Both the position numbers and the translations under genes were made by a program. The notes below the pieces were generated by a model that saw only the letters and a list, made by a program, of their open reading frames with translations, was not told the DNA's origin and did not search any database. This document shows positions 5,189 to 63,511 of a stretch of 64,000 nucleotides of DNA, in pieces. Origin of the DNA: a virus (taxonomy: Duplodnaviria; Heunggongvirae; Uroviricota; Caudoviricetes); IMG/VR virus record IMGVR_UViG_3300024268_000023; one strand, written 5' to 3'. How positions within the stretch are numbered: position 1 is the stretch's first letter; the number at the start of each line of letters is the position of its first letter.

Positions 5189-5341
5189 TTGGAAACAGTG
5201 GATAATTTGGATCTTCGCACTTGGGATGAAGTTTGGGAAGAACTGGCTCCGCAAGTTGAGTATCTTGTTGATTTAGAAGAACGAGAAGATGAGTACGACG
5301 AAATTATTGCGGAATATTCCGATAGTGATGAAGAAATTTAA
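5189..5341 (+). CDS. Very acidic 50-aa protein
   Basis: TTG start after AAGGGGG; 21 of 50 residues are D/E. Confidence 0.55.
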   Translation: METVDNLDLRTWDEVWEELAPQVEYLVDLEEREDEYDEIIAEYSDSDEEI

Positions 5342-5362
5342 TACGGTTTGAGGTGAGGAATC

Positions 5363-8322
5363 ACGCCACTTTCGGTTCAATACTCGCTCTACGCCCTTGA
5401 CACGTCAGCGTTTTTTACGGACGAAGAGCTTGTTATGGAAAGAAAGTTGCAACGGGTAAGAAACATTTTGGGGAAAAGGAAGGGCAGTTACGCTCAGCCT
5501 GATAACAAAACATCCCCTGCAATTAGAATGAAACATATTCATAAGCTCAACGAACTTGCGGTTATGTATAAGTCGGAGCTTAAAAGAATAATTGAGGAAA
5601 ATACACATCTTGTTCGCACGGTGCGACAAGAAAAGTTGACCAGAAGTAACGTGGTCGCCGTTTTTGATTCAACCCTAACGAGAGCATTGGAGATGCAGTC
5701 CGATGTGGTAAATGAGCAATTGGTCATTGTAAAGGTTTATTACTTCGGTGTGGCTGAATCAATGGTTAAAAACGGATTTATGATGAATGGTCAAAGATAT
5801 AAATTTTTCTCGGCAAGCGCCGGGCAAATAAGAACAAAGAAATTTGTAGCTATTAGGGAGGAAGACTACGAGAGAATATATATGAAGCTCTCCTGCGGGC
5901 TTGACATCCCGACTATAAATGAGGCCGGAGGTGTTAACACGAATAAGTACCTTGCGTACCAGGCGCTGTGCTCAAGTGCTACGGACGTCTGGGAAGACTT
6001 TGATATAGATAAGAGTATTGTTGTTGATGATTTTGAAACGACTGTAAGAGGGCTTGTAGACTTTATAGATGAAAAGGATTATTCCATTCAAAGAAAAGAA
6101 ATGGATGTTCCTATTCCGCATACAGATGGCTGCGGAATGATTCTCCCTAAGTTAAGTAAAAAGAATTTCATGGTACGAGCACCATGGATAAAAGGACTTT
6201 TAGCAGTTTTCCCGTTTGATAAATTCATCAGAGAAGAACGAAGAAACGGCAATAAAGACTGCGGATTTATCAGAGATATATATGGGCAGATACATGATGT
6301 GCTCGGCGAAGATATCCAGGTTATTTTTACAAAATCCCAAATAAAGCTATGGAAATATTATGAGAACTGGGATCAATACAAAGAATATTTTAAAAAGTAT
6401 GACTGCGAAGCCTGTAAATGCAATGAAGAGGAAGACTTTATAGAAGACGCTCGATTTAACTACCAGATGCTTCAAACTCTTACAAGCATTACCGATGAAG
6501 AACTTACAAAAATTGCAGAAAGAACCAATAAAACTTTGAGAGATGTTTCTTCCGATAGAGAAACAATGCTCAGAGTTTTCGGAGCAACGAAAACCAATTG
6601 TCATAAAACCTATTTCCAAAAAGCCTTACTTATGTACCCAGAGCTTTTGCAAGACCCTTATTGCAGAGAAACACTCAGAGATTTGAAAAACAGCCTTGAA
6701 AAATTTGGGAAGGCCGGGAGACTTGAAATTGATGGGAAATATCTTTTCTTGATACCAGATTTGTATGCAGCCTGTGAATATTGGTTTAAAGGAATTGAGA
6801 AGCCAGAGGGGCTTCTTAAAAATGGAGAAGTGTATTGCTCCGCTTATAAAAATAAAAAAGAACTTAACTGTTTAAGATCGCCGCACCTTTATCGTGAACA
6901 CTGTGTAAGAACCAATGTTGCTGATGAACACGTTGAAGCGAAGCGGTGGTTCTTGACGAACGGTATTTATACAAGCACTCACGATATGATATCCAAGGTG
7001 CTCCAATTCGATGAACAACATCGTCGCGCTCAGTGGAAACGCTGAGATGAAAACTTCGTGAACCTGGAAATCCAGGGTGTCGGTTATGGCCGGCTAACGG
7101 GGAACCGAGAGGAATCCCGTGCTAAGCGTAAAATAAAAATATCGCCTTTTGGAGGCGATAAAAATTGGACAATAATTAGAGAAAAATAACGATATTTTTA
7201 TTTTACGAAAGTATAACGACTATCGAAAGGGTAGCGGTAAAACCACGAGCTTTGCCGCGAGTAACTGAGTAGAGTAGCTTTTCGGTGAAACTCCGAAAGG
7301 CGAAGCGCGAAGCACCTAAACCTGCAAGGGCATGGTGATGATATAGTCTGCCCCGCGATAGCGGGACGGTTGACGGAGATAAAAGCTTAGTTGTCGCTGA
7401 TCCTACCTTGATAGAAGTAGCAAAGCGTGACTGCGAAGGAATAGTGCCTCTTTATTACAATATGGCAAAAGCTCCTGCCAGAGAAATAACTCCAGATGCT
7501 TTATATGAAGGAATGATAACAGCTTACACTTCCGGAAATATAGGGGCGGTAAGCAACAAAATAACAAAAATTTGGAATCTGCCGGAACCAGATTTAGATG
7601 CTATCAAACAACTTTGCTGTTTAAACAACTTTACTATAGATGCTGCAAAAACTCTTTATAAACCTTTGCCTCCAGACGACATTGCGGATCGCCTGAACGA
7701 GCTTACCAAAAATAAGCTTCCACATTTCTTTATATATGCAAAGGGCAAAAGAGAGTCGCAGGTAATGCCTGTGGGCAACGGATGCGTTGACAGGCTTGAA
7801 CATATCATTGAACACCGAAAATTTAACTTTCACCAAAAGCAACTTGGATATTTCGATTATCGTATGTTGATGGATAACGGGGATCTTGAATTAACCCCAG
7901 AGGACAACGTTCTGATAAAAGCTTATTATGATTTATCTTCTACGATAAATGGTCGAATCGTAGTAGATGAAAACGGCGGGGCCAATTACGATAGAGTATT
8001 CGGGGAATTCAGACAGGCCCTACTTGATATAGACCCGGACATCAACCATCTTGTTGATGTACTGGTAAAACAGACTTTTTGTGTAAAACGAAGCAAACAC
8101 AAGACTGCATTATGGCAGTGCTTCGGAGAAGAAATCTATCAAAATCTTTGCCGTAACATTCCAGAGAATACTATCATGTGTGAATGTTGCGGAAAGAGAA
8201 TTATTAAGACTGCTCGAAATCAAGTTAGATGCGAAGAGTGCGCTAAAGGTTTTAACAAAAAATGGTGTGCAGAGTATAGAGAAAGAAAAAGAGCAAATGA
8301 AGGTTCCGCGACAGTTTCTTAA
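5363..8322 (+). CDS. yonO: YonO-like single-subunit (two-barrel) RNA polymerase; exons 5363-7012 and 7369-8322, about 867 aa after splicing
   Basis: SAGQIRTKK, DGCGM, RSPHL motifs; splicing rebuilds QFDVDGDKSLV (DxDGD); frame is open from 5357 and includes DTSAFFTDEE upstream of the first ATG (5435). Confidence 0.9.
7013..7368 (+). ncRNA. Group I self-splicing intron (IA-like, no ORF), 356 nt
   Basis: Exon ends in U and intron ends in G; P1 CGAU|GA with UCGUCG gives a U.G pair at the splice site; P10 CAAC/GUUG; P2 CUCAGUG-GAAA-CGCUGAG; P4 ACGGG/UCCCGU; P7 GACUA (7218-22)/UAGUC (7344-48); P9 CCCGC-GAUA-GCGGG. Confidence 0.92.
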
Positions 8323-9860: not shown

Positions 9861-9880
9861 AAGGTTAAACTGGATTTTTA

Positions 9881-10501
9881 ATGGCAGATGTTGGTGAACC
9901 CATTGTAATTGTTAATGAAGTACCTTCTGTTACGAAGGATGAAATGTTTATGGATGACCTTGAAAAAAGAAAACTTTTTCTCGAGGGCGAAATTAACGAA
10001 GATACCTTTAGACAGGTAGGTTATCATATTCTGAAAATTAATGAGGAGGATAAAAATCTTCCCGCAGATAAAAGAAAACCTATTAAGCTTTATGTTGCCT
10101 GTTACGGAGGAAGTGTTATTCAAGGACTTACTCTTATCAATATTATTAAATCTAGTATTACGCCAATTTATACAATAGTAGTTGGTCAAGCTTACTCTAT
10201 GGCTTTCTATATTGGAATTAGCGGTAAAAAGAGATTTGCATTCCCCGAGTCCACCTATCTAATTCACGATGGAGGCATTGGTATCCAGACTTCTACCAGC
10301 AAGGTAAAAGACTATGTTGCTTTTGACGATCAGATTAACAAAAAGCTGCAAGCAATTGTTGTCGAACATACAAAATTGACTTCAGAGGAACTTGGAGAAA
10401 AAGAAAGAATAGAATGGTACCTCTTTGCAGATGAAGCAAAAGAAAAAGGTATTGTTGATTATATTATTGGTGAAGATTGCACGCTTGAGGAGGTCTTTTG
10501 A
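9881..10501 (+). CDS. clpP: ClpP-family protease
   Basis: GGSV, AYSMA (Ser), LIHD (His); Glu appears at the usual catalytic Asp position (IEWY). Confidence 0.85.
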   Translation: MADVGEPIVIVNEVPSVTKDEMFMDDLEKRKLFLEGEINEDTFRQVGYHILKINEEDKNLPADKRKPIKLYVACYGGSVIQGLTLINIIKSSITPIYTIVVGQAYSMAFYIGISGKKRFAFPESTYLIHDGGIGIQTSTSKVKDYVAFDDQINKKLQAIVVEHTKLTSEELGEKERIEWYLFADEAKEKGIVDYIIGEDCTLEEVF

Positions 10502-10503
10502 GC

Positions 10504-11217
10504 ATGAGCAAAAAACGTCCGAAATCTTTTGAGCACGAGCACGAAGATGCTCCAGAAACCCTTAAGGGCCATTATTTTTATGGTTTAAAATTAGACCCCG
10601 AACAGGAAGCGTTTAGAGATGCTATTTATAATGATGACAACGATATTATATTCTGTAATGCTGTAGCTGGATGCGGAAAAACTCTTATTGCTATTGCAAC
10701 AGCTAATCTTATGGTTGAATATGGTAAATACGATGGTATTGTATATATCGTGTCACCGGTGCAAGAAGAAAGAATTGGATTTTTGCCTGGAAGTGCTGAC
10801 GAGAAAATAGGGCCATACGGCGCGCCGCTTTATGATGCCCTGATGAAAATTAATGTTGATCCGATGCATGCAATTAATCAGAGTTCTATCTGGACACAAA
10901 AAGAAGGTACTGGATATATTGATTGCATAGGACATGTTTATCTCAGAGGATGCAATCTCGAAAATAAAATAATTGTTGTGGAAGAATCACAGAACTACTA
11001 TAAAGATGAGCTTAAAAAGACGCTCACCAGAGTTTGCGAAAATTCAAAAACAATTGTAATCGGACATACTGGACAATGCGATCTTTATCATTGCCCTGAG
11101 CACAGTGGATTTGCGGCATACATTGAACATTTTAAAGATAAAGAGCGTTGTGCTGTATGCGAACTAACCACAAACCACAGAGGTTGGGTCAGTTCATGGG
11201 CAGATGAACTTGAATGA
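10504..11217 (+). CDS. phoH: PhoH-family ATPase
   Basis: AVAGCGKT Walker A, RGCNL...EESQN, GHTGQCD. Confidence 0.88.
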   Translation: MSKKRPKSFEHEHEDAPETLKGHYFYGLKLDPEQEAFRDAIYNDDNDIIFCNAVAGCGKTLIAIATANLMVEYGKYDGIVYIVSPVQEERIGFLPGSADEKIGPYGAPLYDALMKINVDPMHAINQSSIWTQKEGTGYIDCIGHVYLRGCNLENKIIVVEESQNYYKDELKKTLTRVCENSKTIVIGHTGQCDLYHCPEHSGFAAYIEHFKDKERCAVCELTTNHRGWVSSWADELE

Positions 11218-26401: not shown

Positions 26402-29400
26402 ATGGCTGGATCTCAACAGATAGATTTGCTGTTTGGGGTTAAAGGTGGAGGCAATCCAAGCGGAGCCTCTGGTGCAAGAATACAAGGCCAAATAAACAGC
26501 ATAGTAGGCGGTATAAAACCAATTGAGATAAAAGTCAATTATACTGCCTTATTAAGGGTGCATAAACAACTCGAGCAACTTTCAGCGCAAATAGATGCTA
26601 TTAATGCAAAGCCTTTAAAGATAGCTGCTGGTGGAAATGCTATTTTTAATATAAAAAATAGCGGTGGAGTGCTTAGCGAAGCGGAAACACTCTACAAACA
26701 AATACAGAGAATCTCTAGTGGGCTCCCGGCAGCAGAAGCTAGGGTAGCTGGGTTTAATAAACAGCTAGCTCAAACAAAAATAGTTGCTTCAGATTTAACG
26801 CGAGTAAAAAGCCTTATAGGCCCCCTTTTAAATAAACAAGGAACTTTAATCAGTTTCAGCGGTGCAAAGACTCATCTTGATGAAATGCGCAATATAGTAG
26901 GTGCCTATGGGCAGTACATTAAACACGTAAAAGCAGCTGCTACTGCCAATAAGCATCATAATCTTGCAATTAAAAATGCAGATGCGAATTTGAGGGCTAT
27001 GTACAGTAGCTTGAAATCTAATGTAAATAGCCTTGGTAGAAATAAAACAAAGCTGTTAAATATGGATGATACGATTCCAGAGGTTAAACAAGCAAAAACC
27101 TTAATTGCTTCTTTGGAGGCAGAGGTTGTAAAGTTTAAAACAACGGCCGGAACAGTAAAGCCTATAAATTTTTTTGGGAATAATCTTGCTAACAGTAATG
27201 CAATGAAGGCGTTTTTGTCCTCATCTGATTTGCAGAAACTCCCAGCGGCTATGGCTGCAGCAACGAAAGCTAATAAATCATATGGAAAGTCTGTAGTGAG
27301 CTTAGAGACACAAATTAAGAAAGCTCAAAGATTAATCAATAATTTTGGAAGTAAGAAGGCAAAATTATTTAGTTTAGATAAAGAATTAGCGGAAACAAAA
27401 GAGTATAAACGAGTATTAATTGAATTGCAAAACTTAGCAAAAGGTTTTACAATGCGTGGGAAAGTAATTCCTGCTGTTAATATGGGTGCTCAAGAAGTTG
27501 CGAAACTTAAACAATATTTACAACTGTATGATCTTTTGCCCGCAAAAATAAACGCAGCAAATGCGGCAACTCGTAAACTAAAAATAAGCGCAAATGAACA
27601 TCTGTCGGCATCAAAAATGCTTAACCAAGTTTGGGGTTCTTTTAACAAATTTCCGGGGATTGATAGATTCCAAGATATTAAAAAAGATTATGTTAGTCTA
27701 ATAAACGAACTTACCAATAAAACAAGGCTTAATAATAAAGAAGCAGCGCTCTATGCGAGGAGATTAAAGGATATAGAAAATAGAGCCTACGATGCTGGAG
27801 CGGGGATGCGAAGCTTTACGCAAAGCCTTAATGCTAAGCTGCTTGAAGAAGTTAGGCATTTGATTAGTAGTTTTGCAACAATGTTTGTAATACAAGGATT
27901 TAGAACTTTGTATCGTAACGTTCTTGAAATCGATACGGCGATGACAGAATTAAAAAAGGTTACAGAACTAACTTCAAAAGAATACGTAGAATTTCTTGAT
28001 GGAGCCTCTGAGCGCGCTAAAAATTTAGGTGCTTCTTTAAAAGAAGTCATTAATGCTACGGCCGATTACTCGAGAATGGGGTTTAGCTTGGCGGATGCGA
28101 CTAAATTAGCCGATAGCGCAATAGTATATCAAAATGTCGGTGATGGATTGCAAGATATCGATGAGGCAACCTCTCATTTGATTAGCACGATGACGGCTTT
28201 TGGCTATACGGCAAGTGATTCAATGCATATTGTGGATATTTTCAACGAGGTTGCAAATAACTACGCGGTAACGGCTGCGGATATTGGTACTGGCATTAAA
28301 AAATCTGCTGCTTCAATGCAAGCAGCAGGGAATTCATTGGAAGAGACGGTGGCTTTATTTACCACTGCTAACACTATCGCTCGAGATGCAGATGTTGTAG
28401 GTACTGCTTTAAAAACGGTTAGCATGCGCCTTCGTTCTACAAAAATTGAGATGGAGGAAGCCGGAGAAGACACTGAAGGAATGGCAAGTACAGTGTCCAA
28501 CCTAAGAGAACAATTACTTGCTTTAACGGGTGTCGACATCCAGCTTGATGATGGAACTTATAAATCAACTTATCAAATGCTTAAAGAAATTTCAGAGGTT
28601 TGGGATGAATTAAGCGATAAGGATCAAGCTGCTATTACTGAAAAGCTATTTGGGAAAAAGCAGGGAAATATCGGCTTGGCAATACTTGAGAATTTTGAAT
28701 TAGCGGATGAGGTGTTGGCTACTGCTCTAGATAGTTCTGGCTCGGCATTAGAAGAAAACGAAAAATACCTCGAATCTATCCAGGGACATTTGGATCAACT
28801 TTCGGCGTCTTTCCAAACTTTTGCACAAAATTTTCTTGACAGTGAATTTGTTAAAACCGTGATAGATCTTCTTAGAGGAATATTGGATTTCTTTAATGAA
28901 ATTATTGTAACAGGAGAAAAAGTTGCAGGAACGTTTGGTCAAACAACGGGCGCGGTTATTTCGTTAACGATGGCATTAATCACATTAGATACTGTTTTTG
29001 GTTTTAAACATGTACAAGGAGCAATTAAAAGTTTAAAAACGTTAAAAATAGCATTGCAAGCCATCATTGGTAAAAAAGCTTTTGCGAATTTTCAGGTATT
29101 TCAAAAATTTGCAAATTCAAACGGCTTGATTCTCTCTAAGACAGAGTCTAAGGCATTGCTGGGGCGAATTAACGGTGTTAAAAAAGCTTTATCTGGATTG
29201 TTTAAATTTATAAAAGGAAACCCATTAGTTACAGGCGCTATTGGTGCAGTTGCAGCTGTCACTATAGGGGCTGTTGTTGCAGGTACGAAAGCCGTCCAAG
29301 AGATAAGTATTGAAAATCAACTTGAAGATATTAAAGAAGCTAAAGATGCATATGACATAGCAACTCGTGAATTAGAGGAATATAATAGTCAACTTGAAAC

Positions 29401-32400
29401 GAATATATCTCGATTAAAAGAACTTTATGCAATTCCGAGCAACGATAGAACTTTAGTTGAGCAAGAAGAACTAAATAAACTTGAGCGTGAGAACGAGCTT
29501 TTAGAAGCCAATATCGCAATAAAAGAAAGAGAACAAGAACTGGCAAGACAAGAAATTGTAAAAGAAACTAAAGACGCATTTCAGAATACGATGGGCTATT
29601 CTGTAAATTCTTTTACTAGAGACTATGGCCGTAAGGATATATTTAATTGGTTTGGATTAACAAGTTCTATTTCTCAAACATCGGGATATGATAATTATGA
29701 CGCGGATGGAGATGGGAAATCAGATGCCTTAGGGTCATCATATCTAGGAAGTTATATGCATCTTATGCAACAAATAGAATCATATGATGCTAAAATACTC
29801 GAAATTTCGGAAAAGCTTGGAGAAGATTTAACTGATTCTCAACGTAAAAAATACGAACGAGAGCTAGCTAGATATGAGGAATTCAAAAACGATGCAGTAA
29901 CACAAACAACTGAGATGAGAGCAAACTTGCTCCAATGGCGAAATGATTTGGCGGATTTGGCTGATGAAGGCGACACGGAAGCAATTGCTATGGTGGCAGC
30001 TATTGAGAACGCTATATACGGAATCACTTCAAAAGAAGATAAAGTAACTAGATTGCTCGGTGATTCCAGATTTGCTCAATTGTTTGAATACATAAAAAAA
30101 TTTGGAGACAATAAAGATCTTAGCCTTGAAAATCTTGTAAAAAGCGATTTTGTGCTTGGAAATATAGATTTGAAGAATCGTCAAGTTATTGAATGGACAG
30201 AAGAAACGTTAAAGACATATAAAGACGCTATTGAATCATGGGGATTAGACCCAAGTGAACTCGAGGGCACTGTTTCTGATGTATTGGGAACTTCTGGGGA
30301 ATATGAAGGAATAGAAATTGCTTTTTCTCCGATTTTACAAACACAGAATGGGCCTAAGTTATTGTCTCAAGATACAGTCGATCAGTATATGTTTGGTCTT
30401 ATAGATGCTGCAAAAAAAAAGTATGGAGATAAATTTACCATTGAAAACCTCATTGAATTGGATGCTCAAGGCATAGGGTTCAAAACTGAAGACGGAGAAG
30501 AAATAAAAGGGTTACTAGCGTCTGTTGGCGAAGGTGCCAGCAAAGTTGCAGAAGCAATGCACTATTTAAGCACTGAGGTAGGGGCAATAGGCAGAACTAT
30601 AGTTACAGCCTTAGTGGCGATTATGGATGCGTTTAATATTGACACTAGCGAAATTAAAAAAGCTTTAGATGCAACTGAAAATGAAATAGCTGAAGACCCT
30701 CCCGAAGTTCCTATAACTGTATCCACTGAAGATTTGGATAAAGCAAAAGAGGCGATTGAAGGCCTTACTTCATCTTGTAAGTCAATGGCTGATGCGTTTA
30801 AAGAACAAAATGAAAATGGTTCTCTTAGTGTTGATACGATTCTCGATGTTATTGAAGCTGGATATGGAGCAGCTTTGGCAATTGATCAAGCAACAGGGGA
30901 AGTTAAACTTAATGCCGACATGTATGTAGTTTTGGCAAGCGCTGAACTTCTAGAGGCTCAACAAAAATGGGAGAATATTAAAGCTTCATATGAAGCTGCT
31001 TTGGCGCAATACGAAGAAGCTAAGGCAGCAGGAACTTTAGCAGCTGTGTATGGAAGCCTAGAAGAAGCTGAGAAAGCAGCGGCTGCAGCAAAAAAAGGTA
31101 TTACAGATGCAAATGCGATTTTAGCGGCTTTTGCTAAAATAGATCTTTCTAATATTACTGCAGGTCTCTATGGTGTCGCAAATGCTGCAAAAGATGTGAA
31201 GTCTCAGCTGTCAAATCTTCAGTCTGGCATGGAGTCGCTTTTGAGTCAAACAATTTCTTGGCTTAAGCAAGAATATTCCGATGCTCAAGAAGCACAAGAG
31301 AAACTCTATGATTCTCAAATAGATTCTTTAGAAAAAGCTAAAGACGCAGCCAAAGAACGTTGGGATGCAGAAAAAGAAGCGCTTGAAGATGTAAAAGATT
31401 CCTATAATGATATTATAGACGCTCAAATTGAACTTCTTAAACGCCAAAAAGACGCAGACGATTATGCTAAGAGTCGTGCAGAAAAAGAAAAAGCGGTTTC
31501 TGATATTGAGGCACAACTTTTGGCTATTCAGGACGATGATAGCATTGAAGCACAAAAAATGCGTCTTGAACTTGAAGAACAGCTCAAAGAAGCTCAGGAT
31601 GAACTTGACGAACTTCAGTCTGACAGAGAATATGAACTTCGTGAACAAGCTCTGCAAGATGAAAAAGATCGTTATAATGATGAAATCGACGCTAAAATTG
31701 AAGCAATTGAGAAACAATCTGAGGCAGAAGAAAAAGCATATCAAGAACGAATTGATAGACTTCAGGACTATCTTGACGCAGTAAGAGATGCAGAAAAAAC
31801 CGAGGCTCAATGGAGGGCTGAGGCTTATGACTGGATAGAGAATCGTGAAGAAGAGCTTTATCAAAAACTTCTCGAATGGAATCAAATTTACGGTGATGGA
31901 AGAAAATCTACTGTAGATCAATGGTTCGCAGAAGCTGAAGGTTGGGAAGCTTGGGGTAATTCGTTTGAAGAGGCTCGTAACAACCTTGCACAATATCTGT
32001 ATGAGCTTGCAGAGGCGGCGGGTGTGGTGGCTGAAACTACAACTGCACTACTTGAAGACGTGCTTAAACAGCTTGACATTTACAAACAAGGGTTATTGGA
32101 TCAAGGACTAGAAACCGAAGCGACAATGGTAGAAAATCTAATTGAAAATATATCTAATGCCGTTGCAAATGGTATAGAACTTAGTGATGATATGTTGAAG
32201 GCAATGCAGGATGCGATAATCTCAGGGGATATAGAATGTCTAGAGGCTACTAATAAAATGCTTGAGTATTACAATGAGGTGATGAGTACAGGTCGTACTA
32301 ATTTCGCGGAAATGGCATACTACTTTAGACAAGCAATGCTTAACATGGATGAAGACGCCTTTATTATTCTTCAGGGTATAATGGACAATATTTGCGCAGT

Positions 32401-32863
32401 ATCGCAGGAAGCTTATAATCTGATGAATGGGCTTGGCAGTGGCGGAAATCCCGCAGCTGGAGGTGGAAACCCTAATCTTATGGGAGAAAAAGTTCTCTTG
32501 TATTCAGAAGGTGGCATAGTTGATTACACGGGGCCTGCAGTGGTACATGGTTCTGCTTCTCGTCCAGAGATTGTTTTTAATGCCGATCAAGCTGCCAAGC
32601 TTTACGATTACGTTGTTAATACCCCAAACTTGTTAAAATCAGCGTTTGATAGCATTATGGTTGAAAGTCCTAAGCTTAGAGCCGATCCAATAGGTATGAA
32701 TCCTACGGTTGGCGACATTAATATAAATATTTCTGGAAACGCGGATGCGGATACCGTAAACAGTTTCAGAAAGATTGCCGGACAAATCAGAGAAGAAGTG
32801 GTTAGAAGCCTTAACGAGTCGATGAGTCGAAGAGGAATTGCACGTTCTCCGAGAATGGTTTAA
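26402..32863 (+). CDS. Tape measure protein (TP901-type core), 2153 aa
   Basis: LEIDTAMTELKKVT...ATADYSRMGF core, long helical repeats, C-terminal EGGIVDYTGPAVVHG...PEIVFNA. Confidence 0.92.
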   Translation: MAGSQQIDLLFGVKGGGNPSGASGARIQGQINSIVGGIKPIEIKVNYTALLRVHKQLEQLSAQIDAINAKPLKIAAGGNAIFNIKNSGGVLSEAETLYKQIQRISSGLPAAEARVAGFNKQLAQTKIVASDLTRVKSLIGPLLNKQGTLISFSGAKTHLDEMRNIVGAYGQYIKHVKAAATANKHHNLAIKNADANLRAMYSSLKSNVNSLGRNKTKLLNMDDTIPEVKQAKTLIASLEAEVVKFKTTAGTVKPINFFGNNLANSNAMKAFLSSSDLQKLPAAMAAATKANKSYGKSVVSLETQIKKAQRLINNFGSKKAKLFSLDKELAETKEYKRVLIELQNLAKGFTMRGKVIPAVNMGAQEVAKLKQYLQLYDLLPAKINAANAATRKLKISANEHLSASKMLNQVWGSFNKFPGIDRFQDIKKDYVSLINELTNKTRLNNKEAALYARRLKDIENRAYDAGAGMRSFTQSLNAKLLEEVRHLISSFATMFVIQGFRTLYRNVLEIDTAMTELKKVTELTSKEYVEFLDGASERAKNLGASLKEVINATADYSRMGFSLADATKLADSAIVYQNVGDGLQDIDEATSHLISTMTAFGYTASDSMHIVDIFNEVANNYAVTAADIGTGIKKSAASMQAAGNSLEETVALFTTANTIARDADVVGTALKTVSMRLRSTKIEMEEAGEDTEGMASTVSNLREQLLALTGVDIQLDDGTYKSTYQMLKEISEVWDELSDKDQAAITEKLFGKKQGNIGLAILENFELADEVLATALDSSGSALEENEKYLESIQGHLDQLSASFQTFAQNFLDSEFVKTVIDLLRGILDFFNEIIVTGEKVAGTFGQTTGAVISLTMALITLDTVFGFKHVQGAIKSLKTLKIALQAIIGKKAFANFQVFQKFANSNGLILSKTESKALLGRINGVKKALSGLFKFIKGNPLVTGAIGAVAAVTIGAVVAGTKAVQEISIENQLEDIKEAKDAYDIATRELEEYNSQLETNISRLKELYAIPSNDRTLVEQEELNKLERENELLEANIAIKEREQELARQEIVKETKDAFQNTMGYSVNSFTRDYGRKDIFNWFGLTSSISQTSGYDNYDADGDGKSDALGSSYLGSYMHLMQQIESYDAKILEISEKLGEDLTDSQRKKYERELARYEEFKNDAVTQTTEMRANLLQWRNDLADLADEGDTEAIAMVAAIENAIYGITSKEDKVTRLLGDSRFAQLFEYIKKFGDNKDLSLENLVKSDFVLGNIDLKNRQVIEWTEETLKTYKDAIESWGLDPSELEGTVSDVLGTSGEYEGIEIAFSPILQTQNGPKLLSQDTVDQYMFGLIDAAKKKYGDKFTIENLIELDAQGIGFKTEDGEEIKGLLASVGEGASKVAEAMHYLSTEVGAIGRTIVTALVAIMDAFNIDTSEIKKALDATENEIAEDPPEVPITVSTEDLDKAKEAIEGLTSSCKSMADAFKEQNENGSLSVDTILDVIEAGYGAALAIDQATGEVKLNADMYVVLASAELLEAQQKWENIKASYEAALAQYEEAKAAGTLAAVYGSLEEAEKAAAAAKKGITDANAILAAFAKIDLSNITAGLYGVANAAKDVKSQLSNLQSGMESLLSQTISWLKQEYSDAQEAQEKLYDSQIDSLEKAKDAAKERWDAEKEALEDVKDSYNDIIDAQIELLKRQKDADDYAKSRAEKEKAVSDIEAQLLAIQDDDSIEAQKMRLELEEQLKEAQDELDELQSDREYELREQALQDEKDRYNDEIDAKIEAIEKQSEAEEKAYQERIDRLQDYLDAVRDAEKTEAQWRAEAYDWIENREEELYQKLLEWNQIYGDGRKSTVDQWFAEAEGWEAWGNSFEEARNNLAQYLYELAEAAGVVAETTTALLEDVLKQLDIYKQGLLDQGLETEATMVENLIENISNAVANGIELSDDMLKAMQDAIISGDIECLEATNKMLEYYNEVMSTGRTNFAEMAYYFRQAMLNMDEDAFIILQGIMDNICAVSQEAYNLMNGLGSGGNPAAGGGNPNLMGEKVLLYSEGGIVDYTGPAVVHGSASRPEIVFNADQAAKLYDYVVNTPNLLKSAFDSIMVESPKLRADPIGMNPTVGDININISGNADADTVNSFRKIAGQIREEVVRSLNESMSRRGIARSPRMV

Positions 32864-52426: not shown

Positions 52427-52921
52427 ATGACAATTATTGAAGCAATGGTACAACTCAGAAATGACCTTAAACTTTGGGTCACTAATAACTTGCGTGTTAA
52501 AGTTGATAAAGAAGAAATAGACCCATATGTTTTTAATGTTGACCTTAATGGAGAAGAAGACGGAGATGGGTCTAATTTTGATGCAAACTATTTTGATGTT
52601 GATGAGACTCTTTCTGTAACAGGCTTAGCTGCAGATGCTAAGAAAACTGGTGATGAGCTTGCTCGCTTAAATGAGATGATTGGAGGTTCTCCGGTTTCTG
52701 ACCAGATCGCAGAAGCAATTGTTGAGGTTTATGTACAAGCAGAGGAACCGGCTGATGCTCAAACAGGAACTTTGTGGGTTGATACTAACGAAGTAGGTCT
52801 GCCCGAAGAGGAAGATAATACTGCCAAGGTTTATCTCATTGATGCTGGTACCAGTGATATTTCCTCAATCGATCTTAGCAACTATAAAGTAGGCGACGTT
52901 TTGATAGTAACTACTTCATAA
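52427..52921 (+). CDS. Fibre-cluster protein
   Basis: VDETLSVTGLAADAKKTG and VQAEEP....GTLWVD fibre motifs; N terminus paralogous to 59838. Confidence 0.6.
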   Translation: MTIIEAMVQLRNDLKLWVTNNLRVKVDKEEIDPYVFNVDLNGEEDGDGSNFDANYFDVDETLSVTGLAADAKKTGDELARLNEMIGGSPVSDQIAEAIVEVYVQAEEPADAQTGTLWVDTNEVGLPEEEDNTAKVYLIDAGTSDISSIDLSNYKVGDVLIVTTS

Positions 52922-52936
52922 AGGAGCTGGTATTAG

Positions 52937-54232
52937 ATGATAACAAATAGAACAGCTACTGTAGTTATCCAAGGATTGAGCGGGGCCAATACATTATTCA
53001 AACGAAGCGAAGAAGAAAAAACATATGGGCGTTTTTATGTCGTAAAAGAAAATTTTGAAGACGGAGAACCAGCAGGTCTCACTGGGATAAGTGGCGATGT
53101 TTTTGTTGTAACCGGTGAAAAGGTTGCGTATTTTATCAAGACTATTACATTGTATGAAAACATTTTCTATGATATTTCTGGGAAAGCTATTCCTGGGGAT
53201 TTGACGGTATTCCTATCTTCTGGGTTTACAAAAGGAGATATAGAAGGGCTTAAAAATAATGTTATAGCAACCACCTATGCGGATAAACAAGGCAACTTTA
53301 AGTTTGAAAGTGTTTTTTGTGAAGGTAACGATGGTGTGGTAGCAATGTGGATTCCTATTTCATTGGAAAATGTTGCCACAGCAAGTCTCGAATATAGTTT
53401 GTCCGTAGCTATCCATGACTCTGCTTTAGGGAATATTCTTACCTATTCTTTCTTAAAAGAAAAAGGTTCATACACGAAACCTTTTTTTACAATAACAGGA
53501 ACATGTACTAAAAATATCGAAAAGATTTTTTTGAGCAAAATTGATAATACTTTTGATTTAGCCCAACTGATGGAAACGCTTTGTACAGCAAAAGACACAG
53601 AAAACGGGAAATGGAAAATCGAGCATAGTGGAGAGTACGATCAAAACTACGTTTTATGGTGTGCTACTGCTAATGAAGGTTCTTTTACCGTAGATGAAAT
53701 TTTACTTACAGAAGATACCACAACTTGTCTTTCGGCGGACACATTAATAACCATGGCAGATGGCAGTAAATGCAGATTGGATAACATCTCAATTGGTGAC
53801 GAGGTTCTGTCTGCCAATGGAGCTATTACTAAAGTTTACAATGTGCGCAGAGGACATTTTAATGACACTCATACATTCTATACGTTTGAAGATGGCACCG
53901 TTATAGACGAAACACATCCTCATCGGTTTTATAATGTAGAGCAAGGGTTTTGGCAGAGACTTCAATCGTGGAAGGTTGGAGAACATGCAATGAAAGAAAA
54001 TGGAGAAAAAGTGGCTCTGAAATCTGTTGAGCACGTACATGAACCGGCGGAAATGTTCGGAATATGGACAGACTCTGGTATGTATTTTGCAAACGGACTT
54101 TTATCGGGAGCCGCTTTTTGTAATAAAGAATTATTAAAAGAAGCTTCAGCGGAACAGGCTGTTGATATGATGTTGTCAGCAGATGAAGACTGGCTTCTTC
54201 AATTAATGGGGATAGAAGGTGAGTTACCATAA
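52937..54232 (+). CDS. Hint (Hedgehog/intein-like) domain protein; Hint about 53726-54108
   Basis: Block A CLSADTLITMADG, block B ETHPHRF (TxxH), terminal YFANGLLSG without His-Asn, then a ~40-aa tail. Confidence 0.85.
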   Translation: MITNRTATVVIQGLSGANTLFKRSEEEKTYGRFYVVKENFEDGEPAGLTGISGDVFVVTGEKVAYFIKTITLYENIFYDISGKAIPGDLTVFLSSGFTKGDIEGLKNNVIATTYADKQGNFKFESVFCEGNDGVVAMWIPISLENVATASLEYSLSVAIHDSALGNILTYSFLKEKGSYTKPFFTITGTCTKNIEKIFLSKIDNTFDLAQLMETLCTAKDTENGKWKIEHSGEYDQNYVLWCATANEGSFTVDEILLTEDTTTCLSADTLITMADGSKCRLDNISIGDEVLSANGAITKVYNVRRGHFNDTHTFYTFEDGTVIDETHPHRFYNVEQGFWQRLQSWKVGEHAMKENGEKVALKSVEHVHEPAEMFGIWTDSGMYFANGLLSGAAFCNKELLKEASAEQAVDMMLSADEDWLLQLMGIEGELP

Positions 54233-55386
54233 AGAAATTAGTTATGCTTTCAGTGGAAAGCGTTTTCTCCGGAAGAGTTTGCAGCGGAATGGCAGAAATG
54301 GTAGATAGTATGGCAAATTCTCTGAGCAGAGATTATGATGTTACGATTGTGTGCCCTGATGGGGATAGTGTGTTTGTAAGAAACGCAGGCGATTTGAGAA
54401 CAATAGATGAAGACGTAAGAGTTTGTCGTTTTTCCGCTGTTAACTATTATTTGGTATCTCAAAGCCATTGGATTGAGAAAGCTGTAAAAATTGTTGAAGA
54501 TTTAAACCCCGATATTTTGCACAATTTTGCAGAGCCAGAAATTATCTCCATGCTTTCTAAAAGACCTTTAAAGGCCGTATGCACTTTTGATCAAGCGGAT
54601 TTCGTTAGGGGCAAAGAGAAATTTTTGCCCCTCTATGACACCGTTACCACAAGTTCCGTTCAATATGCAAAAGATGTTTTAGGAGCAAAAGATGAGCTTT
54701 CTGATACTCTATTGTCCATTGATTTCCAAGGTATCACCGCAGGTATATTAGACACGGTTTTTACTCCCGAAAAAGGTTTGCTGATTCCTGCAAGTTATAC
54801 TGCAGAGAATCAAAATGGTAAACGCATATGTAAAAATAATTTGCTTAAGACTTACGGGGTAGATGGAGACCCTTACATATGTGTCATGATGTGCAGATTG
54901 ATAAAGGAGAAGGGTCTTGAAAAAGTTTTTGACTCTATAGACACCATTAAAAGAACCGGAGGTGTTCTGGTTATTGTCGGTAAAGGTGCGCATGTTTATG
55001 AGCAAAAGCTAAGATCTTATAAACATTCTGATGGAGTTATTTATATTGACAGATGGGCTTCGCCCGTACAAGCGGCTCCTTTAGCGGCTGGGGCAGACTT
55101 TTATTTATGCCCAAGTAATTCAGAGGCATGCGGTTTAATGCCTATGACGGCCAGTCGTTATGGAGCAATTCCTATTGTTGCCATGAATGGCGGATTAGTT
55201 GATAACTTTAATCCCGATAACGCAGTTGTAATTGATGAAAACGGTTTGCCGAATGCTATTGAACGAGCGGCAAAACTGTATGAGGATAAAAAGGAATTAA
55301 AAAACAAAAGAAACACTTGTATGACTGAAGATTTTTCATGGACTACAAGAAAACAAGGATATATAAGTATATATGAAAAGGAGTAA
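54229..55386 (+). CDS. Glycogen-synthase-like (GT5-like, GT-B) glycosyltransferase; first ATG 54244, probable ATA start 54229
   Basis: CRLIKEKG, AGADFYLCPSNSEACGL, RYGAIPIV..NGGLVD match the GlgA C-terminal lobe; KTGGL is replaced by VCSGM. Confidence 0.8.
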   Translation: MKKLVMLSVESVFSGRVCSGMAEMVDSMANSLSRDYDVTIVCPDGDSVFVRNAGDLRTIDEDVRVCRFSAVNYYLVSQSHWIEKAVKIVEDLNPDILHNFAEPEIISMLSKRPLKAVCTFDQADFVRGKEKFLPLYDTVTTSSVQYAKDVLGAKDELSDTLLSIDFQGITAGILDTVFTPEKGLLIPASYTAENQNGKRICKNNLLKTYGVDGDPYICVMMCRLIKEKGLEKVFDSIDTIKRTGGVLVIVGKGAHVYEQKLRSYKHSDGVIYIDRWASPVQAAPLAAGADFYLCPSNSEACGLMPMTASRYGAIPIVAMNGGLVDNFNPDNAVVIDENGLPNAIERAAKLYEDKKELKNKRNTCMTEDFSWTTRKQGYISIYEKE

Positions 55387-55393
55387 CCTTAGA

Positions 55394-56041
55394 ATGAAGC
55401 ATCTTGCTTTAATTGCAGATGGGAATAGACGTTGGGCAAAAGAAAATAATTTGCCATGGGAGACGGGCTATTTGCAAGGTTTGGCTACAATTGAGCGTTG
55501 CTGTGATTGGGCAATAGATAGAAATGTTGAATATTTGACTATATATTGCTTCTCTACTGAAAATTGGGGACGCCCTGAAAATGAAGTTAATCAGCTTATG
55601 GATTTTGCCAGATGGTATTTTTCTGAGAAATTAGATTGGTACATAGCATCTGATATATGCGTAAAGTTCGCTGGACGTAAAGATCGCCTGGCAGAAGATT
55701 TGGTCGATAAGCTTAACAAAGTAGAAAATGCTACTATGAATTGTAAAAAATTAAAATTAACAATTTGTGTGGATTATGGCGGACGAGATGAAATTGTTAG
55801 AGCTATAGAGACCGGAGCAAAAACTGAGCAAGAAATATCTGGAACTTTAGACGTCAAAGCTCCAGACCCAGACATGATTGTTCGCACTGGTGGGGAAATG
55901 AGACTTTCGAATTTTTTGCTTTGGCAAGCGGCTTATGCCGAATTGTATTTTGTTAAGGAGTTTTTCCCGGCATTAGATTATTCTATGTTGGATTCTTTCT
56001 TAAACGAATATATAAATAGGAAACGAAATTTTGGACATTAA
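55394..56041 (+). CDS. uppS: cis-prenyltransferase (undecaprenyl-PP synthase family)
   Basis: IADGNRRWAK, FSTENWGRP, YGGRDEI, RTGGEMRLSNFLLWQ. Confidence 0.93.
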   Translation: MKHLALIADGNRRWAKENNLPWETGYLQGLATIERCCDWAIDRNVEYLTIYCFSTENWGRPENEVNQLMDFARWYFSEKLDWYIASDICVKFAGRKDRLAEDLVDKLNKVENATMNCKKLKLTICVDYGGRDEIVRAIETGAKTEQEISGTLDVKAPDPDMIVRTGGEMRLSNFLLWQAAYAELYFVKEFFPALDYSMLDSFLNEYINRKRNFGH

Positions 56042-59837: not shown

Positions 59838-61316
59838 ATGAATATAGTTGAAGCTTTAATACAAGTAAGACAAGAAATCCAGTCTTGGGTTACAGAAAAT
59901 CTTATAAGTAAGATTGACAAAAATAATCCTGTGGCAACAGGGTCTTTCTCTCTAAATAGAAAAGCAGAAAGTGACGTTGGAAATTATTCCTTTGCGGAAG
60001 GCAAAGACACCGAGGCAAGTGGAGCGGCTTCTCATGCAGAAGGCTGTGAAACCAAAGCTATGGGGATTTATTCTCACACCGAAGGATATCAAACTGAGGC
60101 GTTGGCCTATGGGCACGCTGAGGGAATGAACACTAAAGCATCTGCTCAAGCACATACGGAAGGAGCACTTACAGTTGCCTCCGGCGACGCTTCACACGCG
60201 GAAGGTTCTGCAACCACAGCCGAGGGTACATACTCTCATGCTGAAGGAGAAGGAGCTGTTGCGTCCTCCCGCGCTCAACACGTTCAAGGGACATACAATG
60301 TTTTGGATGCTATGGATGACCCAGCAGCAAAAGGTAAGTATGCGCATATTGTTGGAAACGGTGGCTCAGAAGCAGAACGTTCTAATGCGCACACTGTTGC
60401 GTGGGATGGCACGGGCTGGTTTGCTGGAGATGTTTATGTGGGTGGCACCGGACAAGATGAGGGTGCTGTAAAACTTTTATCTGAAAACAATGTTGACTCA
60501 ACTCCTACGGAAGATTCGGAAAATGCAGTATCCAGCGGAGGAGTATATCAACAGCTCGATTATATGACAACAGCTATTCTCGGAATGAGACCTGCCTACA
60601 TATGGGTTAATGCAGATGGGACGACGAGTAAAACATATGCAGAGCTTAAGGCGGAACTTGAGTCGGAGCGCGGATGCGGAGGCATTGTGGTTAAACGAGT
60701 GGTAGCCGAGAATGAAGAAACTGGGGAACAAGAGATTCGCAGTTATATTCTTAGCAACGGAAATACCATAAACGGCCTTATGTCTGATATGGATTTTCAT
60801 CTTTCTTGTTGCGAAGAAGGAAAGGTATATACTTGTGATATTTCATTCTATGCTACTCTAACTGACTTAAACGTTCCTATAGAGTGCATTTTTGATTCCT
60901 ATGAATATCAACCTGCGAAAATTATTATACGTGTCGTCGATGGAATTGCAGAATACACCTATAGAGAAATAGCTGAATTAAGACAAAGCACGGGCTCCTC
61001 TGACTTCGTTATCAACCAGCAGCTAGAACCTTATGAAATTGGCGGGTTGTCTTTCACTCCAAGCAGAGGGTATTCTTCGGTCGGTATGAGTTTTGATGCT
61101 GATGATGAAGGAAATTTTGCAGGAACAACTTATCATTTTTCATGCGTGGAAGGAAATCGTATTTATACTTGCTCATTCTCAGAACCTTTAACAACTGCAG
61201 ATACTTATGACGATTATGTTGTTATAACTTTTGAGGAAACTGAAATATTGACTCGAGAAGAGGTTAATTCAGCTATTGAAACAGCAGTTGGTTTGGCGAT
61301 TGGAGGTAGTTATTAA
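59838..61316 (+). CDS. Fibre with YadA/Hep-Hag-like head repeats
   Basis: Tandem ASHAEG/YSHTEG repeats; AHIVGNG...RSNAHTVAWDG. Confidence 0.75.
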   Translation: MNIVEALIQVRQEIQSWVTENLISKIDKNNPVATGSFSLNRKAESDVGNYSFAEGKDTEASGAASHAEGCETKAMGIYSHTEGYQTEALAYGHAEGMNTKASAQAHTEGALTVASGDASHAEGSATTAEGTYSHAEGEGAVASSRAQHVQGTYNVLDAMDDPAAKGKYAHIVGNGGSEAERSNAHTVAWDGTGWFAGDVYVGGTGQDEGAVKLLSENNVDSTPTEDSENAVSSGGVYQQLDYMTTAILGMRPAYIWVNADGTTSKTYAELKAELESERGCGGIVVKRVVAENEETGEQEIRSYILSNGNTINGLMSDMDFHLSCCEEGKVYTCDISFYATLTDLNVPIECIFDSYEYQPAKIIIRVVDGIAEYTYREIAELRQSTGSSDFVINQQLEPYEIGGLSFTPSRGYSSVGMSFDADDEGNFAGTTYHFSCVEGNRIYTCSFSEPLTTADTYDDYVVITFEETEILTREEVNSAIETAVGLAIGGSY

Positions 61317-62056
61317 TGGCTAATATGCATGCTACTTTAACATCTTTGTTTGATGATATCGCCGATGCTATTCGTTTGAAAAAAGGTAATGATATAGAGA
61401 TTATTGCAGACGAATTCCCATATGCTATTTCTACAATCAATAACACGAATAAAAATACGTTTGAATTTACAATCCCAAAAGGCAGAATAACCGGAGACAT
61501 GGACGGAGATGGGTTGATAACTGAGGCCGATGCTGATTTGGCTAGAGTTTTGGTATCTTCCATAGATCCTGACGAGATTCAAGTTGCCATTGGAGATTTG
61601 GATGAAGATGGCCAGATTACAGCAATGGATGCAAATATAATTAGAAAACTAGCAGTAGGAACAATTACTAGTTGGAATATGACTGATTATTATGGAAATT
61701 GGGTGCATGTTGCACAAGAAGGCTCGTTAGGCTACTTTTATCATGATGTCTCTGTTCCTGGAGTTAATGCGAGTACACTTGTAACTTTAGTTCCATCAAA
61801 GTACGAAAACTGGTTCATTGGAACAGAATGCTTGGATGGGATTGTTAGAATTAAAGTTACTAATTGCCCTGTAGAGGATTGCAGAGGATGCTTTTTTTGG
61901 GATAAGACCGAAACTGTTACCCCAGAAATGAACTTGCAGAGTAAAACGGTTACTCCATCCGAAGAATTACAAACCATAGTCCCCGACGATGGATATGACG
62001 GTTTAAGTGAGGTTATCGTGAACGCTGTCGAGGTATATGACGGGAGTGTGAGCTGA
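61316..62056 (+). CDS. Dockerin-domain-containing fibre-cluster protein
   Basis: GDMDGDGLITEADA and GDLDEDGQITAMDA duplicated Ca-binding loops (about 61493-61650); C-terminal KTVTPS...PDDGYDGLSEV. Confidence 0.75.
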   Translation: MANMHATLTSLFDDIADAIRLKKGNDIEIIADEFPYAISTINNTNKNTFEFTIPKGRITGDMDGDGLITEADADLARVLVSSIDPDEIQVAIGDLDEDGQITAMDANIIRKLAVGTITSWNMTDYYGNWVHVAQEGSLGYFYHDVSVPGVNASTLVTLVPSKYENWFIGTECLDGIVRIKVTNCPVEDCRGCFFWDKTETVTPEMNLQSKTVTPSEELQTIVPDDGYDGLSEVIVNAVEVYDGSVS

Positions 62057-62617: not shown

Positions 62618-62648
62618 GAGCCCTGCTTAAAGCGGGGCTCTATTTCTA
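62618..62648 (+). terminator. Intrinsic terminator
   Basis: GAGCCCTGCT-TAA-AGCGGGGCTC-TATTTCT. Confidence 0.75.
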
Positions 62649-62665
62649 TAAAGGAGGTGAGGCCT

Positions 62666-63511
62666 ATGAGTTTTGGAGGTCTTGATTTTATTTTTGATGG
62701 ACAATATTCAGAAAACTACGGGTTGAAAATCATGAGCATCGGTGGTAGCAGTGTAACTTCAAATGCCTCAGCCGGCTGCGGAATTGATATTTTCACTGAT
62801 TGGGTTTACCGAAACCCGTCGGCTTTCCACCAGGGAGTTGCTCAGAATAAGCCGCTTGAATTCGATATTGAATTTGTCAGCGAGGATGAGCTTCCAGGAA
62901 TTATGCGCTCAAAAATCAGTAAGTGGCTTTTTGGCAGAATGAATTTTTGCAAACTTCAAATCGTACAGAGAGACCTGCAGGATATTTACTTCAATTGTCA
63001 TCTTGTAGATCCTCAGCTTACATATATAGGCAACTATTGTCATGGTATCAGCTGTAAAGTACAATGTGATGCTCCATGGGCTTGGCAGAATGAAAAGACA
63101 TATAAGTTTAATTCGAATACGGCAAAACAAGTTACAGATGAGAGCGGAACTTATTTTACCTGGAGACATTATAATGACTCCGATGACACCGATTATACTT
63201 ATCCGATTATCAAGTTCAAAATGAAACGCGGTGGGGATTTTTCAATCATCAACACAAGTGATAATAATCGAGAATTCAAATTTGGAATTACAGAAAACGG
63301 AACTGCAAAAACTTTAGTTGAAAATGAAGAACTTATTATTGACTGCCGGAACCAAACTCTTGAAACCTCATATACAGGTAGAAATACTTTGAGCGAAATT
63401 TTTAATAAAAAATTTTTGCGACTTGTATCAGGTGTGAACGACCTTAGAATTACCGGAGATTTTGAGAGCATTGAGATGAAATATCGTAACGCAAGAAAGG
63501 TCGGTGGTTGA
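62666..63511 (+). CDS. Distal tail protein (Dit-like)
   Basis: FIFDGQYSENYGL, PLEFDIEF, CDAPWAW, FLRLVSGVNDLRITG. Confidence 0.85.
   Translation: MSFGGLDFIFDGQYSENYGLKIMSIGGSSVTSNASAGCGIDIFTDWVYRNPSAFHQGVAQNKPLEFDIEFVSEDELPGIMRSKISKWLFGRMNFCKLQIVQRDLQDIYFNCHLVDPQLTYIGNYCHGISCKVQCDAPWAWQNEKTYKFNSNTAKQVTDESGTYFTWRHYNDSDDTDYTYPIIKFKMKRGGDFSIINTSDNNREFKFGITENGTAKTLVENEELIIDCRNQTLETSYTGRNTLSEIFNKKFLRLVSGVNDLRITGDFESIEMKYRNARKVGG

Follow-up and report, generated by a model that had tools for sequence, protein, structure and literature searches.

A recurrent phage cassette of a predicted cleavage-only Hint protein, a GlgA-derived glycosyltransferase and a cis-prenyltransferase

Introduction

Which function could unite a Hint autoprocessing domain, a glycosyltransferase (GT) and a cis-prenyltransferase among the late genes of a phage? 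The question is raised by three neighboring genes (positions 52,937 to 56,041) of the Caudoviricetes record IMGVR_UViG_3300024268_000023, which encode a protein with a Hint domain (hereafter the Hint protein), a GT, and the cis-prenyltransferase UppS (Table 1). The window, that is, the whole stretch of 64,000 nucleotides analyzed here, is the first half of this 127.7-kb IMG/VR virus record, which belongs to a large gut phage and whose completeness was judged 99%; it encodes a split terminase and portal and capsid-type PHROGs. In the original prediction, made from the letters of this DNA before the present analysis, the three genes were regarded as a coupled cassette that makes a polyprenyl-linked glycan and attaches lipid or sugar to a protein. 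The three genes are real and intact. We suggest, with a probability of roughly 45%, that in phages of Clostridia-type Gram-positive hosts the cassette forms a single portable module of late genes, in which the enzymes and the Hint protein act on the same target.

Results

Recurrence of the cassette in different phages

The cassette recurs in at least 13 loci, at 26-73% identity. When IMG/VR was scanned with UppS and with the Hint protein, nine loci (38-62% identity) emerged; all nine have the Hint and GT genes, and eight have UppS. Among the Hint genes examined, each that carries the tail has the GT gene after it, and UppS is found in 13 of the 15 distinct loci. In a protein search, at least 199 proteins with the Hint domain and its tail were found, as were at least 159 GT proteins; all of these sequences come from metagenomes, phages or metagenome-assembled genomes (MAGs). 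The original prediction had turned on whether the trio occurs together elsewhere. It clearly does, and the fallback reading of the genes as unrelated morons is therefore unlikely.

The backbones range from P2-like prophages of Lachnospiraceae and phages of 120-175 kb to two TAG-recoded phages, and in every one of them the GT gene stands directly after the Hint gene or one gene later. For instance, in a P2-like myovirus prophage of a Lachnospiraceae MAG (L011/L016) the cassette follows the genes for baseplate J, gpI and the fibres and precedes a lysozyme gene, and another locus (L012) is an integrase-bearing prophage. On a 173-kb contig (L013), the cassette lies ahead of LRR_5, Flg_new and holin genes and an endolysin gene of Gram-positive type. 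The recoded phages are L035 (IMGVR_UViG_3300028048_000053, 172 kb) and L039 (Logan SRR34377105, 50 kb). Neither is readable by translation table 11, and both become open when TAG is read as glutamine, L035 then having single open reading frames (ORFs) with 17 and 14 in-frame TAG codons. The GT of L035 is 26% identical and its UppS gene is on the opposite strand; all three genes are still adjacent.

Over 13 loci, the mean pairwise identity is 0.54 for the Hint domain with its tail, 0.51 for the GT and 0.59 for UppS, versus 0.24 for the N-terminal cargo of the Hint protein. Therefore the conserved unit is the Hint domain and tail together with the enzymes, with varied cargos fused on.

In a scan of bacterial genomes, MAGs of Bacilli, Tenericutes, Erysipelotrichaceae, and Alphaproteobacteria (L017-L025) turned out to encode proteins related to the Hint core. 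These proteins have Cys1 and no His-Asn end, and they stop a few residues after ...ANGLLSGNR (...NYFANGLLSGNRxSKNI, stop). No tail and no neighboring GT gene were found in these relatives or in the viral locus L036. The divergent L035, which has the GT, also has the tail. In these small numbers, the tail tracks the GT. The bacterial proteins form a wider family, with varied N-terminal parts and the same Hint subtype at the end.

The Hint domain and its acidic tail

In the AlphaFold2 (AF2) model of the Hint protein (pLDDT 83, built on 46 relatives), the Hint fold of the domain is not in doubt. Its closest structural match is the BIL2 domain of Tetrahymena BUBL1 (6tmm; Z 17.1, rmsd 1.7 over 134 residues), followed by the BIL domain of C. 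thermocellum (2lwy, Z 16.9), the gp41-1 intein (Z 16.6) and Hedgehog (1at0, Z 15.5); Foldseek gives E 2.5e-9. At the level of sequence, residues 264-377 match Hint families weakly: the Pfam family PF05203 (Hom_end_hint) gives E 5.4e-7 and 30.3 bits, just under its cut-off of 32.1, which is passed by two relatives, L004 (34.6) and L002 (33.8).

Neither Cys264 (nt 53726) nor His329 varies in 46 full-length relatives or in 24 sequences of the Hint domain with its tail; H312 is nearly invariant. The TxxH motif of block B reads T326-H327-P328-H329, with Thr326 (Thr B:7) usually but not always kept. According to a review (PMC4031507), the N-terminal junction is the target of Thr B:7, His B:10 and residue F:4, with His B:10 the most conserved. 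At the other end, the domain closes with Y383-x-A-N-G-L-L-S390-G391. In a profile alignment to BIL2 (E 5.8e-8; the BIL2 chain carries N143A), Gly391 occupies the place of the penultimate His and the variable residue 392 that of the terminal Asn, and neither of these two catalytic residues is present. Because they are missing, splicing and C-terminal cleavage would be absent, and only an N-terminal acyl shift and release would be possible. Of the features of an intein, the His-Asn end is lacking, nothing but the 40-aa tail lies C-terminal to the domain, and the flanking sequences do not make up an interrupted host protein. The domain is a BIL/Hog-type member of the Hint superfamily and not an intein. 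An N-to-S acyl shift at Thr263-Cys264, releasing a fragment of 263 aa, is highly probable.

The tail is predicted to form three short helices and is acidic (9 D/E versus 2 K/R, net about -7), with conserved residues N396, L399, L400, A403, E406, A408, M411, S414, and E417. The invariant N396, five residues beyond the end of the domain, was considered as a displaced cleavage Asn and set aside: it falls in a predicted helix and has no preceding His.

Thus the layout originally read from this gene, a cargo followed by a cleavage-only Hint domain and a tail of about 40 aa as in Hedgehog, proves correct. Cys1, the TxxH motif (His329 being invariant and Thr326 not), the missing His-Asn end (L389-S390-G391) and a real, conserved tail all hold up among the relatives or in the BIL2 alignment. 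In one locus (L015, Lachnospiraceae MAG C.6_6, 5784-7588), the Hint gene appears split into two overlapping frames, 5784-6971 and 6803-7588, possibly by a frameshift or an assembly error.

The glycosyltransferase

The GT is descended from GlgA but is not itself one. It matches Glycos_transf_1 of Pfam (3.3e-12), and the NCBIfam model glgA (TIGR02095) covers residues 132-379 only (1.5e-43, 149.2 bits versus a cut-off of 328.45). The PDB sequence matches are glycogen and starch synthases. The AF2 model (pLDDT 94) is likewise closest to these enzymes, with a Foldseek E of 6.4e-23 and TMq 0.85 for E. coli 2qzs and TMq 0.89 for 6gne of the plant synthase group, followed by GT4 enzymes such as BshA and MshA. 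In the C-lobe, R218, K223, and E294, which from a reading of the motifs we take to correspond to R300, K305, and E377 of the E. coli enzyme, are at least nearly invariant, and G316-G317-L318 is invariant. The KTGGL motif is replaced by V12-C-S-G-M16 in the window, and the position of its lysine is variable across 37 family members. Both observations bear out what had been read from the window sequence, namely a kept GlgA C-lobe and a change of KTGGL to VCSGM.

A profile search of 1.84 billion representatives returned about 45 full-length clusters (at 50% identity) of 350-400 aa, below which the matches fall sharply to ordinary GlgA proteins of 470-490 aa, matched in the C-lobe only. Because of this sharp drop, the GT can be regarded as a discrete GlgA-derived family with a remodelled acceptor lobe.

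UppS and accessory lipid and sugar genes

UppS is an ordinary member of its family. It passes both curated cut-offs (PF01255: 5.6e-67, 225.9 bits versus 27; TIGR00055: 199.4 bits versus 109.55), and the species-level equivalog models are all under theirs. The motif stretches DGNRRWA, FSTENWGRP, and RTGGEMRLSNFLLWQ are visible; the motifs had originally been described as intact.

The gene order is Hint, GT, UppS. Genes for farnesyl diphosphate (FPP) synthase, for a polyprenyl-phosphate sugar synthase similar to PgfS and ArnC, and for a DUF1385 membrane protein are optional inserts. The FPP synthase gene stands between GT and UppS in six of the nine IMG/VR loci (PF00348, 3.2e-41; NCBIfam FPPsyn, 1.1e-51). 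In L037, the same place is taken by a GT2 enzyme with best matches to the polyprenyl-phosphate sugar synthases PgfS, ArnC, and PpgS, and in L038 both a hydrophobic DUF1385 protein and an FPP synthase are inserted. The theme of a polyprenyl-linked glycan, proposed from the window, is strengthened by these additions in the relatives. The cassette likely forms a single functional unit dealing with a polyprenyl-linked sugar or glycan.

Cargo of the Hint protein and the upstream gene

The cargo is modelled as all-beta: the first ~140 residues are moderately conserved and are followed by a variable middle part and a beta-sandwich at residues 164-261. We do not name its fold, because the fold matches (PPC/collagen-binding/GOLD and carbohydrate-binding-module-like sandwiches) are weak, with Z 6.5-7.7. 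In relatives, the cargo contains inserted DnaJ-type CXXCXGXG zinc fingers or Pro-rich linkers. An ORF directly upstream of the Hint gene in L037 (6468-6995) begins with MITNANGSILIDGV, like the N-termini of the Hint proteins, and looks like a free-standing first cargo module. By hydropathy, none of the three cassette proteins has a signal peptide or a transmembrane segment, so the chemistry would be cytoplasmic or at the inner face of the membrane.

The last ~30 residues of the upstream gene o164 (from nt 52871) carry the motif vYLID.G..D.S.IDLS.Y..GDVLIV, which occurs once in the window. In 9 of 11 loci, the divergent L035 among them, the gene that immediately precedes the Hint gene ends in this motif; these upstream genes are otherwise dissimilar between loci, and the common form of the motif is ID.G..D.S.IDLS.Y..GDVLLV. 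Since o164 shares its N-terminus with the ORF o492, the sequences suggest that the cargo of the Hint protein is part of a chain of fibre type. The N-terminal motif shared by o164 and o492 is M.I(I/V)EA(M/L)(V/I)Q(L/V)R..(L/I)..WV..NL, as if the two proteins were attached to the same site. In L002, which has no UppS, the gene after GT (9878-10579) repeats, with 49% identity, the first 199 residues of the gene that precedes Hint (5289-6593).

Gene layout and genomic setting

Table 1. Features of the cassette and of its surroundings in the window
Feature	Position	Strand	Evidence
Tape measure, 2153 aa, PhageMin_Tail	26402-32863		family match
Upstream fibre-like gene (o164), 164 aa	52427-52921	+	N-terminal likeness to ORF 59838-61316 (o492)
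Hint protein ORF, 431 aa	52937-54232	+	ORF list
N-terminal cargo of the Hint protein, residues 1-263	52937-53725	+	AF2 model
Hint (BIL/Hog-type) autoprocessing domain, Cys264-Gly391	53726-54109	+	sequence profile, alignment, fold match
Conserved acidic three-helix tail, residues 392-431, with stop codon	54110-54232	+	alignment, AF2 model
Compact retaining GT-B glycosyltransferase, 380 aa; GlgA/GT5-like C-lobe, shortened and remodelled N-lobe	54244-55386	+	ORF list, Pfam, NCBIfam, AF2, Foldseek
Cis-prenyltransferase (UppS), 222 aa as listed ORF	55373-56041	+	ORF list, PF01255, TIGR00055
Dockerin-bearing protein	61316-62056		type I dockerin, Pfam 1.8e-5, over its cut-off
Dit-like distal tail gene	62657-63511		DUF6558/SPP1_Dit

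The gaps between o164 and the Hint gene and between the Hint and GT genes are 15 and 11 nt. The start of GT in the relatives (MKKLVML...) reads ATA-AAG-AAA-TTA-GTT-ATG in the window (54229-54246), the ancestral start codon being ATA; translation of GT must start either at this ATA or further in, at ATG 54244, which lacks a clear Shine-Dalgarno sequence. For UppS, the true start is probably ATG 55394: it is the likelier candidate because it lies behind a strong Shine-Dalgarno sequence, AAGGAG (55380-55385), and gives a protein of 215 aa, similar in length to its relatives (214-215 aa). UppS would then be separated from GT by a gap of 7 nt instead of overlapping it by 14 nt. Of the three overlapping genes first described here, the tight packing of same-strand ORFs remains, but the genes do not all overlap.

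The cassette sits between the tape measure gene and the dockerin and Dit-like genes, within one unbroken plus-strand block. These tail-related genes in the same window support only indirectly the placement of the cassette among virion fibre genes in the original prediction; the large ORFs flanking the cassette have no family match. Between 49058 and 62618, the promoter scan found fewer promoter-like sites than in shuffled sequences (39 versus 49.5), and the terminator scan found no convincing terminator in the same interval, the first strong one being at 62618-62640. The cassette genes are therefore expected to be read together with the tail operon, and the picture of a moron with its own promoter is rejected for the window, the scans showing no autonomous unit. 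Superinfection exclusion from a prophage, also considered at first, is a poor fit for a cassette with no promoter or terminator of its own inside a late tail operon.

The tape measure and Dit-like genes are ~30 kb apart, with a 2670-aa ORF ending in DUF6273 and many fibre-like genes between them, a layout unusual for a tail module. In L037, a 545-aa dockerin protein is encoded two genes upstream of the Hint gene. Megablast of the cassette region against GenBank phages gave no match, and among the PHROGs neither the GT nor UppS has a family and the Hint part has only a weak one. The tblastn matches of UppS to phage records were mostly unannotated fragments and whole-genome-scale records and were not used.

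Discussion

Proposed function of the cassette

For the cassette genes, the analysis directly shows the folds and catalytic residues as well as their joint inheritance and their place in the operon. In the scheme that we prefer, a single module acting on one target, the core parts would be a fibre-associated beta-sandwich protein with a cleavage-only Hint domain and an acidic helical tail, a compact GlgA-derived retaining GT, and a carrier-lipid supply, the last consisting of UppS and, in some phages, also of FPP synthase, a polyprenyl-phosphate sugar synthase or the DUF1385 membrane protein. Cys264, helped by His329, would perform an N-to-S acyl shift that leaves residue 263 on a thioester. 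The sole outcome would be the release of the 263-aa N-terminal fragment, with neither splicing nor C-terminal cleavage. Meanwhile, on the inner side of the membrane, the enzymes would assemble a polyprenyl-linked sugar or glycan. Finally, the released fragment, or the fibre that it joins via the C-terminal motif of the upstream gene, would be glycosylated or otherwise modified by this pathway, with the tail linking the Hint protein to the enzymes.

Several considerations weigh against this scheme. The chemistry of every step, from cleavage to the sugar and lipid products and any coupling, is inferred. In the late operons of phages, neighboring genes are frequently inherited together even though they do not act on one another, and the pairwise-identity (mirror-tree) correlations are alike among all parts of the cassette (0.68-0.78); because all pairs are alike, they show co-inheritance only and do not single out co-evolution of Hint and GT. 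No GT domain of Pfam (precomputed annotation) was found in any of the eight longer homologues of the Hint protein, that is, no Hint-GT fusion. Two distinct loci (L002/L028 and L015) keep Hint and GT with no UppS within the flank, so the lipid synthase appears dispensable. A carrier lipid is not needed for glycosylation of a cytoplasmic protein, and since none of the three proteins has a signal peptide or a transmembrane segment, it is hard to see how a cytoplasmic protein meets a lipid-linked glycan. The location of the cargo in the virion is argued from gene position and weak fold matches only. A prediction of the complex between the GT and the Hint domain with its tail scored 0.02, which counts neither for nor against binding.

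Alternative explanations

That two independent functions simply travel together is rather unlikely, though it survives best of the alternatives. The Hint domain would serve the maturation or assembly of an accessory protein of the tail fibre and would remove itself, like the self-cleaving chaperone domains of other fibres, with water as the nucleophile, and the GT and UppS, with or without FPP synthase and GT2, would separately alter or sustain the synthesis of a host envelope glycopolymer late in infection. Envelope-modifying glycosyltransferases are common in phages, and in all contexts the cassette is found among tail, fibre, and lysis genes. The tail-less Hint relatives, which have other cargos and no GT, imply that the domain can work alone, and two loci do without UppS. 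However, this explanation accounts neither for the position of GT right after Hint (or one gene on) in every backbone, even where UppS has changed strand, nor for the presence of the tail only together with the GT, nor for the conservation of the Hint domain and tail at the level of the enzymes while the cargo is swapped.

Transfer in the manner of Hedgehog proteins is improbable. In that case, the thioester at residue 263 would be resolved by the hydroxyl group of a polyprenol or polyprenyl-linked sugar made by UppS and GT, the fragment would be esterified to a lipid or glycolipid anchor, and the 40-aa tail, with the GT, may serve as machinery for recognition or selection of the adduct. The order of cargo, cleavage-only Hint domain, and conserved tail is that of a Hog protein, the structure of Hedgehog is matched (Z 15.5), and the association of the tail with the GT fits such a role. 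Gram-positive bacteria hold free undecaprenol, a possible alcohol nucleophile. Moreover, this is the only scheme giving one purpose to all three core genes, the FPP synthase, and the polyprenyl-phosphate sugar synthase. Yet the net charge of the tail (about -7) suits neither an anionic membrane nor lipid binding, and the sterol-recognition region, unlike the acidic phage tail, is hydrophobic. Two loci have no UppS, a direct link is backed neither by a fusion nor by a predicted contact, and the Tetrahymena BIL2 domain, from the locus of a ubiquitin-like and not of a lipid-transfer protein, matches slightly better than Hedgehog (Z 17.1 versus 15.5). Nor is it evident how a phage would benefit from a lipid-anchored cytoplasmic protein.

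An aid to lysis or host takeover, in which a dead-end glycolipid or an odd chain length perturbs the undecaprenyl-phosphate pool and weakens or times wall synthesis before lysis, the Hint protein being a regulator released by cleavage, is very improbable in spite of the holin and endolysin genes directly downstream of the cassette in several loci, as the cassette of the window lies between fibre-like genes and not next to lysis genes, a synthase adds carrier lipid and does not remove it, and nothing ties the beta-sandwich cargo to regulation.

Significance

Full-text literature searches turned up terminase inteins only and no description of the cassette. A Hint domain with a dedicated set of sugar and lipid-carrier enzymes was nowhere found described, and this one is conserved across phage lineages sharing little else. 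If the parts of the proposed module act together, they would give phages of gut Firmicutes a means, so far undescribed, of modifying the host envelope or a fibre-associated protein, and this might be the first Hint-driven attachment of a lipid or glycan in bacteria or viruses. Should the transfer itself occur, which we doubt, it would be a counterpart of Hedgehog lipidation in a prokaryotic virus, and its product, a C-terminal ester of a bactoprenol-type (glyco)lipid, would be a new class of protein lipidation. The three-gene system can be cloned, so that an old question, the role of non-intein Hint domains of bacteria, becomes directly testable.

Comparison with known systems

Cleavage by Hint domains at the N-terminal junction only, without splicing, is known from Hedgehog proteins, BIL domains, and polymorphic toxins. 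The BIL domains (BIL2 of Tetrahymena thermophila BUBL1, 6tmm/6y75; C. thermocellum, 2lwy) are the best matches of the phage domain in both sequence and fold. As in BIL domains, there are Cys1 and the block B His, no insertion in a host protein, and no homing endonuclease. Unlike them, the phage domain has no penultimate His and terminal Asn, has a helical tail of 40 aa, and is tied to GT and lipid-carrier genes.

With Hedgehog and the Hog proteins (1at0), the Hint protein shares an N-terminal cargo, a terminal Hint domain limited to the N-terminal step, and a short extra region after it. The idea of a lipid nucleophile comes from Hedgehog, where we know of no dedicated lipid-synthesis genes alongside. 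The phage tail differs in being acidic and in having no detectable sequence relation to the sterol-recognition region, the bacterial host has no sterols, and transfer is hypothetical here.

The GT shares with GlgA (GT5; E. coli 2qzs, A. tumefaciens 1rzu) the GT-B fold and the residues of the C-lobe, and the GlgA enzymes provide its closest structures and profiles. In contrast to them, it is ~100 residues shorter, its N-lobe aligns poorly, the lysine of KTGGL is lost, and it falls well short of all GlgA cut-offs (149 versus 328 bits). It stands apart as a phage family of its own, which makes glycogen improbable as its acceptor.

The theme of sugars linked to undecaprenyl phosphate is shared with the phage-borne GtrA/GtrB/GtrC serotype-conversion systems and with streptococcal O-glycosylation of the PgfS type, and L037 carries a PgfS/ArnC-like GT2. 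In the phage cassettes, however, the constant enzyme is a cytoplasmic GT-B protein, and a Hint protein belongs to the set. The cassette of the window has no GtrB-like GT2, GtrA flippase or GT-C transferase, the GT2 being found in the relative L037 only. In the mycobacteriophage virion glycosylation that Freeman and co-workers reportedly described in 2023, GT genes are likewise said to lie among the virion structural genes and to be expressed late; that system is said to differ in having no Hint domain or carrier-lipid synthase and in using other GT families. Compared with all these systems, the parts of the cassette are of known kinds, namely Hog-like autoprocessing and phage glycan modules, and the unusual element is their combination, a Hint domain with a GT and UppS.

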